Assembly (NCBI RefSeq): GCF_054482595.1
Contig: NZ_CM137008.1
Direction: 5' to 3' (one strand)
Length of the DNA: 64,000 nucleotides
In this document: positions 62,672 to 63,354 of the stretch, in pieces
Layout of the letters: each line of letters begins with the position of its first letter
Numbering within the stretch: position 1 is the stretch's first letter
The notes under the pieces: generated by a model
The model's database searches: none
The model's input: the letters and a program-made list of their open reading frames with translations, nothing else
What the model was told of the DNA's origin: nothing
Made by a program: the position numbers and the translations under genes

Positions 62672-63354
62672 GCTTCCTCCTGCAACTGCCCGTTCACCAG
62701 CCGTAAGCAGCGGTCGCAGCGTGCCGCCAGTTGCAGGTCGTGGGTCACCATAATCAACGTGGTGCCATGTTCACGGTTGAGGGAAAACAGCAGGTCGGCA
62801 ATTTTATCGCCCGTCTGGCGGTCAAGGTTGCCGGTGGGTTCGTCGGCAAACAGCACATCAGGTCGACCATTAAAGGCTCGTGCCAGCGCCACTCGTTGCT
62901 GTTCACCGCCGGAAAGCTGTGCCGGAAGATGATCCAGACGTTTACCCAGCCCTAACTGTTCGAGCAACGCTTTCGCCCCGTTACGACTTTCCGCGCTACT
63001 CTCACCGCGCAGCAGAGCCGGAAGCTCGACGTTTTCCAGCGCGTTAAGGGTAGGAATTAACATAAATGACTGAAAAACAAAGCCGACGTGCTTCGCGCGC
63101 AACTTTGCCCGCGCTTCTTCGTCCATATTATGTAGCGGTTGTCCCACCAGACTCACTTCGCCACTGCTGCCGTCATCAAGCCCGGCGAGGATCGCCAGCA
63201 AGGTTGACTTACCCGATCCCGACTCGCCCACCAGTGCGATGGTCTCGCCACGTTTGACAACCAGCTCAACTCCGGTGAGGATGGAGAGTTCATGCTCCCC
63301 CTGACCGACGGACTTCTTAAGATGATGAACTTCAACAATGTTTTCCGCTGGCAT
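62668..63354 (-). CDS. ybbA: ABC transporter ATP-binding protein YbbA
   Basis: 228-aa ORF with Walker A (GESGSGKST), signature (LSGGEQQRVALAR) and Walker B (LFADEPT) motifs. Confidence 0.9.
   Translation of the reverse strand: MPAENIVEVHHLKKSVGQGEHELSILTGVELVVKRGETIALVGESGSGKSTLLAILAGLDDGSSGEVSLVGQPLHNMDEEARAKLRAKHVGFVFQSFMLIPTLNALENVELPALLRGESSAESRNGAKALLEQLGLGKRLDHLPAQLSGGEQQRVALARAFNGRPDVLFADEPTGNLDRQTGDKIADLLFSLNREHGTTLIMVTHDLQLAARCDRCLRLVNGQLQEEA

Follow-up and report, generated by a model that had tools for sequence, protein, structure and literature searches.

Very probable head-to-head overlap of the tesA and ybbA coding sequences in Enterobacteriaceae, with the tesA promoter written inside ybbA

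Promoters can be written inside the coding sequence of another gene, as are the ftsZ promoters embedded in the ddlB, ftsQ and ftsA coding sequences, and divergent genes can share a very short control region, as in Tn10, where the tetA and tetR promoters share operators within a true intergenic region. The divergent tesA and ybbA genes resemble both. As with ftsZ, the -35 and -10 hexamers of tesA are written in another gene's codons and synonymous variation over them is suppressed; unlike the ftsZ promoters, the tesA promoter is hosted by its opposite-strand, divergent partner and fires against ybbA transcription. The likeness to tetA/tetR lies in divergent genes, a very short shared control region and possible mutual promoter influence, but tesA and ybbA are separated by no intergenic DNA and show no repeat or palindromic operator, neither an inverted repeat nor an operator-like palindrome being found in 63200-63450 (coordinates are those of the window, the whole 64,000-nucleotide stretch of contig NZ_CM137008.1, assembly GCF_054482595.1, that was analyzed). 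Divergent excludons (PMC12288877) are likewise opposite-strand neighbors with 5' transcript overlap; typical excludons, however, overlap in untranslated regions, whereas tesA and ybbA overlap in coding sequences, and the excludon hallmark is reciprocal repression, whereas the products of tesA and ybbA are partners in one complex rather than antagonists. Head-to-head overlaps of coding sequences form the rarest class, accounting for 2 of the 663 overlapping gene pairs counted in the reference genome of E. coli (Huvet and Stumpf 2014, PMC4161906), and tesA-ybbA is a member of this class that is unusually well backed by conservation and is not a misannotation. The overlap itself is already known from the reference annotation, the 2025 YbbAP-TesA structure paper (PMC12646458) and the excludon list (PMC12288877); what we add is a located, conserved tesA promoter inside ybbA and a resolution of the tesA start codon that draws on sequence comparison.

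In the window, the plus strand reads ATGATGAAC at 63322-63330 (ATG ATG AAC from 63322), the list of open reading frames gives the tesA frame as open from 63292 to 63948, and the CAT at 63352-63354 is the ybbA ATG on the minus strand (Table 1). If TesA is taken as the 208-residue protein, 63322-63354 is common to both coding sequences, and the 33-bp opposite-strand 5' overlap that an earlier note on this DNA had described is borne out by the sequence, the open reading frames and the MG1655 reference annotation, which has the identical layout (tesA complement(519139..519765), ybbA 519733..520419); RefSeq/PGAP begins tesA one codon later, at 63325 (207 aa), for a 30-bp overlap. The codons of the two genes stand in exact antisense register, with TesA Met1 and Met2 as the reverse complement of YbbA His11 and His10, and TesA His11 (CAT) as that of the ybbA ATG. 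Of 5426 complete E. coli genomes, 5415 contain this stretch of the locus with both genes annotated, and the 63325 ATG and the ybbA ATG lie at unchanged spacing in all 80 other Enterobacteriaceae species. Because the overlap is conserved in related genomes, it is neither a chance-ORF artefact nor a lineage-specific annotation error, and we consider a true head-to-head overlapping gene pair to be very probably the best explanation of the whole. The neighboring junctions are also tight: tesA shares 11 nt with ybbO on the same strand (63938-63948) and ybbA shares 4 nt with ybbP (ATGA, 62668-62671), so that every junction in the four-gene cluster is an overlap.

Table 1. Features of the tesA-ybbA locus, in window coordinates
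Feature	Position	Strand	Remarks
ybbP	60257-62671	-	right end of window
ybbA CDS, 228 aa, ABC ATPase of the YbbAP transporter	62668..63354	-	ORF list; NCBIfam NF007879
Second tesA TSS, K-12	63126..63138 (TSS ~63138)	+	-10 TATTAT at 63126-63131; inside ybbA
tesA -35 hexamer TTGACA	63254..63259	+	antisense to ybbA Val32-Val33-Lys34
tesA -10 hexamer GAGGAT	63277..63282	+	antisense to ybbA Ile25-Leu26; 17-nt spacer
tesA TSS	63290	+	EDL933 Cappable-seq; 64 nt inside ybbA
tesA 5' UTR, 35 nt to 63325	63290..63324	+	antisense to ybbA codons 11-22
Dual-coding overlap, conserved 30 bp	63325..63354	both	33 bp (63322-63354) with the first ATG
TesA signal peptide, predicted, MNFNNVFRWHLPFLFLVLLTFRAAAA	63325..63399	+	mature protein from Ala codon 63400
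tesA CDS from conserved start, 207 aa	63325..63948	+	ATG in 80/80 species; full-length match to NCBIfam equivalog NF007819
YbbA N-terminal peptide expected from the 63354 start, PAENIVEVHHLK			
ybbA Shine-Dalgarno, CAGGAAGGG	63358..63366	-	antisense to tesA signal-peptide codons Pro-Phe-Leu
Weak leftward promoter TTTGCA-18-AACAAT, candidate ybbA promoter	63698..63734	-	TSS 63698/63699
Second leftward TSS	63923	-	antisense to tesA 3' end; 569 nt upstream of ybbA ATG
ybbO start	63938	+	right end of window

The locus from the 80 other Enterobacteriaceae species was scored for tesA and ybbA start codons. Four in-frame tesA candidates precede the hydrophobic core of the signal peptide (63292, 63322, 63325 and 63355), among which only the codon at 63325 is universal, being ATG in 80 of 80 species; at 63322, 64 species have ATG and the other 16 have ACG. 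Since each of these positions is read on the other strand as well, the antisense YbbA codons provide an internal control. The His10 codon, antisense to 63325, is CAT in all 80 species, whereas the His21 codon, antisense to 63292, is CAT in 41, CAC in 28, CAG in 9 and CAA in 2, and in distant YbbA homologues the His10 position is taken by Asn, Glu or other residues. With His10 fixed as CAT while His21 drifts, conservation of the 63325 ATG is not merely that of a conserved YbbA histidine. On this comparative evidence we place the beginning of tesA at ATG 63325, and in E. coli translation may possibly start at 63322 as well. The 208-residue start on which the earlier note relied thus stands in the MG1655 and UniProt annotations but is not the conserved one, and as the conserved start is 63325, the conserved overlap is 30 bp and not 33 bp. 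Shine-Dalgarno pairing before 63325 is weak (-3.2 kcal/mol). All solved TesA chains, including 9GE8_T of the YbbAP-TesA complex, begin at or adjoining ADTLL (63400), and these N-termini are consistent with cleavage of a signal peptide of 25-26 residues. The SMRT-Cappable-seq, MG1655 Cappable-seq and TetRP ribosome-profiling supplements gave no direct transcription- or translation-start data for tesA or ybbA.

The most downstream candidate would do away with the overlap altogether: were tesA to start at TTG 63355, right after the ybbA ATG, the two coding sequences would merely adjoin, and their overlap would be an annotation artefact. This codon is TTG in 66 species, GTG in 4, TGG in 6 and CTG in 4, so that a TTG or GTG stands there in 70 of 80, and it is the start chosen in many of the automatic calls of public databases, which give a TesA of 197 or 194 aa. 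It is nevertheless CTG or TGG in 10 species, the signal peptide made from it (MPFLFLVLL...) would be without any positively charged n-region, Shine-Dalgarno pairing is lacking (-1.5 kcal/mol), and neither the invariant 63325 ATG nor the fixation of YbbA His10 as CAT would be explained. We regard a start at 63355 as highly improbable and retain 63325. Gene calls at this locus vary in general: public TesA orthologues (P0001-P0120) show four called N-termini, giving 218, 208, 207 and 197 aa, and some calls are extended far into the antisense frame (286-347 aa). Opposite ybbA this frame contains no stops because only rare codons (TTA, CTA, TCA) would create them.

The start of ybbA admits less choice. 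The ATG at 63354 is kept in 80 of 80 species and is the first possible ybbA start once the frame has passed its upstream stop; E. coli offers no further one before a GTG at codon 42, adjoining the Walker A motif. It is preceded by AGGAAGGG, whose duplex with the 16S 3' end has an energy of -7.0 kcal/mol, and the Shine-Dalgarno reads CAGGAARGG in 69 of 81 sequences. The NCBIfam YbbA equivalog NF007879 covers residues 1-228 of 228, PDB entries 9GE6/7/8 contain the entire 228-aa sequence, and the generic ABC-ATPase models LolD, FtsE and PhnC, together with the solved LolD, MacB and MJ0796, align from YbbA residue 5-10, so that a downstream start would remove the first beta strands. We conclude from these alignments and from codon conservation that ybbA should begin at ATG 63354. 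That its annotated start is wrong and the true one lies downstream of the overlap would draw on nothing we found beyond the general fallibility of start annotation, and has against it that from the upstream stop to codon 42 the frame has no start other than the 63354 ATG, that this ATG is invariant and has a good Shine-Dalgarno, and that the conserved ABC fold runs from residue 5-7, whose first strands a codon-42 start would delete; we give this reading next to no credence. The earlier note had offered, as one way out of the overlap, that one of the two starts is internal, and had proposed start-codon conservation as a check. Run in 80 species, that check left the ATGs at 63325 and 63354 invariant and the other tesA candidates lost in 9-16 species, and any start downstream of the overlap proved untenable for either gene. 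In one genome, Citrobacter amalonaticus AUH_CA_2023_1 (L041), single-base insertions in the ybbA 5' region shift the frame, which is probably a long-read assembly error and not biology.

The note's other suggestion, that promoters are embedded in the partner's coding sequence, agrees with what we find for tesA, whose transcription start site (TSS) lies inside ybbA in the company of invariant synonymous sites, and by inference extends to ybbA. The -35 hexamer TTGACA is identical in 81 of 81 sequences, three ybbA third-codon positions included, and the spacer is 17 nt long in all 81, although its synonymous sites vary; the -10 hexamer is AAGGAT in 55 sequences and GAGGAT in 26. GAGGAT fits the consensus at only three of six positions (A2, A5 and T6), and a standard promoter scan of 62900-63800 returned no sigma-70 site, a negative that is uninformative because the tesA promoter fails the scan's requirement for a 4/6 match at the -10. 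A weighted sigma-70 scan ranks TTGACA-17-GAGGAT first upstream of tesA, and a promoter so placed predicts a TSS near 63289-63290. Cappable-seq, which is specific for 5'-triphosphate ends, of E. coli O157:H7 EDL933 detected a primary tesA TSS at 613285(-) in all 8 conditions and classed it as antisense to ybbA (PMC10469882). By exact sequence match, this position is 63290 in the window, 8 nt past the end of the -10 at 63282 and within the 6-9 nt expected of a sigma-70 promoter; of 926 positions compared between the window and EDL933, 7 differ, all outside the tesA promoter. We conclude that tesA is transcribed from a probable sigma-70-type promoter within ybbA codons 25-34, the TSS coming from EDL933, a different strain.

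A longer tesA transcript has also been described, RegulonDB v10.5 giving a K-12 TSS 184 nt upstream (5' UTR of 184 nt), as quoted in Table S5 of PMC10469882. Synonymous sites around this position, near 63138, vary freely, the site is not conserved, and it was not seen in the EDL933 Cappable-seq data. Transcripts from it would include the 63292 ATG together with a strong Shine-Dalgarno and could encode a 218-aa TesA precursor, and they bear on whether tesA starts at 63292 in general, in which case the overlap would measure 63 bp. The frame is open from 63292, the Shine-Dalgarno in front of it (GGAG, -8.4 kcal/mol) is strong, some gene callers predict 218-aa forms, and the codon, which is ATG in 41 species, GTG in 28, TTG in 2 and CTG in 9, could serve as a start in 71 of 80. 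Yet the main TSS at 63290 lies only 2 nt upstream, so that this Shine-Dalgarno is absent from the main tesA mRNA; the nine species with CTG lose the start, several (e.g. L010, L043 and L050) being without any start codon upstream of 63322; and an ATG or GTG at 63292 is the plain antisense of YbbA His21 (CAT or CAC). A start at 63292 therefore seems to us very unlikely, and the conserved ATG at 63325, 35 nt into the main transcript, remains the preferred start.

The weight that the tesA promoter places on ybbA can be read from synonymous sites, the entropy of which was computed from the alignment of 80 to 81 Enterobacteriaceae sequences, with 187 ybbA third-codon sites as background (mean 1.14 bits, 2.7% nearly invariant). 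Across 63253-63321 the mean falls to 0.51 bits and 52% of the sites are nearly invariant (Mann-Whitney p=3.7e-6), and within the overlap the mean is 0.13 bits against the background of 1.14 (p=2.7e-7). Entropy in ybbA drops exactly at 63253, from the -35 hexamer onwards; over the 81 sequences, synonymous sites in or adjoining the hexamers are invariant, whereas those in the spacer and close to the TSS vary. The extra conservation of the overlap region would be accounted for by three stacked constraints, namely two proteins plus the promoter and ribosome-binding signals. On the ybbA side, strong extra conservation reaches only ~24 nt beyond the ATG, which covers the Shine-Dalgarno. As a separate observation, the part of the tesA 5' UTR at 63299-63324 (CCCTGACCGACGGACTTCTTAAGATG) hardly varies among 81 sequences, four-fold degenerate ybbA sites included; it has a weak Shine-Dalgarno and contains a -10-like TAAGAT right before the ATG.

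For ybbA, the ribosome-binding site is written in the signal-peptide codons of tesA, and since its Shine-Dalgarno is already inside tesA, the ybbA promoter must lie further inside that gene. EDL933 Cappable-seq reported TSSs at 612877/612876(+) in some conditions (PMC10469882), which correspond to 63698/63699 in the window, 344-345 nt upstream of the ybbA ATG; our motif scan predicts a leftward TSS at 63698 from TTTGCA-18-AACAAT, a site that is poorly conserved. A second leftward TSS, at 63923, corresponds to EDL933 612652(+) and was detected in 7 of 8 conditions (PMC10469882), and the motif scan found no convincing sigma-70 motif for it. The EDL933 Cappable-seq data contain no leftward TSS from 63355 to 63697, tesA has no conserved synonymous block farther than ~24 nt upstream of the ybbA ATG to indicate a ybbA promoter, and a directed attempt at 5' mapping of ybbA gave no product (PMC2760140). 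An inhibitor of LolCDE raises ybbA 4.2- to 6.6-fold (PMC5105897), and given this induction the ybbA promoter may need an activator; inspection by eye upstream of ybbA gave no convincing sigmaE, CpxR or Rcs-type motif, and no Rfam family matched in 62900-64000 at E<=1. We propose that ybbA is transcribed from at least one weak or inducible promoter deeper in tesA, with 63698/63699 and 63923 as the candidates. The same coding sequence also carries a promoter for the next gene: ybbO has its own within tesA, with a perfect -10 TATAAT formed by TesA Tyr-Asn codons (GRRYNEAF) at 63748-63760 (+), a Cappable-seq TSS at 63760 (EDL933 612815), and synonymous sites at 63750 and 63753 that are nearly invariant in 80 species.

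Twelve distant TesA representatives, at 41-70% identity and including Vibrio, Kangiellaceae and Alcanivoracaceae, extend the comparison beyond the enteric bacteria; one of them lies on a 1.6-kb contig that is uninformative for want of upstream sequence. In 11 of the 11 judgeable lineages, tesA is divergently adjoined by an ABC ATPase and an FtsX-type permease, with called gaps between tesA and the ATPase gene of -33, -8, -2, -2, 0, +7, +13, +17, +21, +25 and +52 nt, and the 30-bp overlap geometry recurs in one relative at 70% identity. As the genes are close in all judgeable lineages while the gaps vary, their proximity is ancient and the 30-bp overlap is specific to Enterobacterales. We suggest that this overlap arose most simply through the adoption by tesA of an upstream ATG that the antisense of YbbA His10 provides, a step that would have lengthened the n-region of the TesA signal peptide by about ten codons. 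In Vibrio (L084, 2999-3004) and Alcanivoracaceae (L091, 452-457), the two ATGs share the palindrome CATG and overlap by 2 nt. The -10 of the top-scoring sigma-70-like site upstream of tesA falls on ATPase Ile-Leu codons in 8 of 11 lineages, and a promoter position conserved beyond Enterobacterales was considered on this ground and rejected: synonymous-codon shuffling equals it (per-locus p 0.07-0.74, Fisher p=0.105). Because the antisense of Ile-Leu is NARDAT regardless of selection and shuffled codons do equally well, we make no claim of a conserved position outside the enteric bacteria.

With each promoter placed inside the partner gene, the two transcription units would each run through the promoter and 5' end of the other, and complementary 5' RNA would span no less than 64 nt and perhaps 400-630 nt. 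Published TSS and RNA-seq coverage data indicate that the tesA and ybbA transcripts overlap, and ExcludonFinder lists tesA-ybbA among 16 divergent excludons of MG1655, present in half or more of 58 RNA-seq samples (PMC12288877). The overlap could thus be a regulatory divergent excludon that tunes the ratio of TesA to transporter through collision of RNA polymerases, occlusion of promoters or cutting of the complementary 5' RNAs by RNase III. Besides the published list, such a role draws support from the tesA TSS inside ybbA and the leftward TSSs inside tesA, from the inducibility of ybbA (4.2- to 6.6-fold) set against a tesA TSS detected in all 8 conditions, and from the conservation of tight pairing across Gammaproteobacteria. 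However, a solved structure shows TesA in complex with YbbAP, a lipid hydrolase together with a type VII ABC transporter (PMC12646458; PDB 9GE8), and action as one complex speaks against mutual exclusion; stacked coding and promoter constraints fully explain the conservation, because two genes that have come to overlap are not easily separated again; and with gaps of -33 to +52 nt across lineages, it is proximity that is conserved and not the overlap itself. A regulatory excludon is consequently a tentative reading that we think unlikely, though one of some substance, and the overlapping gene pair held in place by stacked constraints is the account that we favor. Broader still, and distinctly doubtful, is the idea that the interlocked 5' ends are an ancient, selected control module of YbbAP-TesA, with tesA always driven by a promoter antisense to the conserved 'L(T/S)IL' strand of the ATPase, where the Ile-Leu codons yield the -10-like hexamer NARDAT; if this were true, opposing transcription from a ybbAP promoter inducible by envelope stress would set the hydrolase:transporter ratio across Gammaproteobacteria.

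The tesA-ybbA locus offers a clean, well-supported example of a rare class of gene arrangement, as well as a lesson in annotation. It also calls for caution whenever either gene is recoded, deleted or refactored, as ybbA codons 11-34 hold the tesA promoter and leader, and tesA codons 12-15 hold the ybbA ribosome-binding site. This caution covers both ybbA knock-outs made for the study of YbbAP-TesA and synonymous genome recoding: a clean deletion of ybbA would probably abolish tesA expression, and vice versa, and could confound the phenotypes assigned to either gene.
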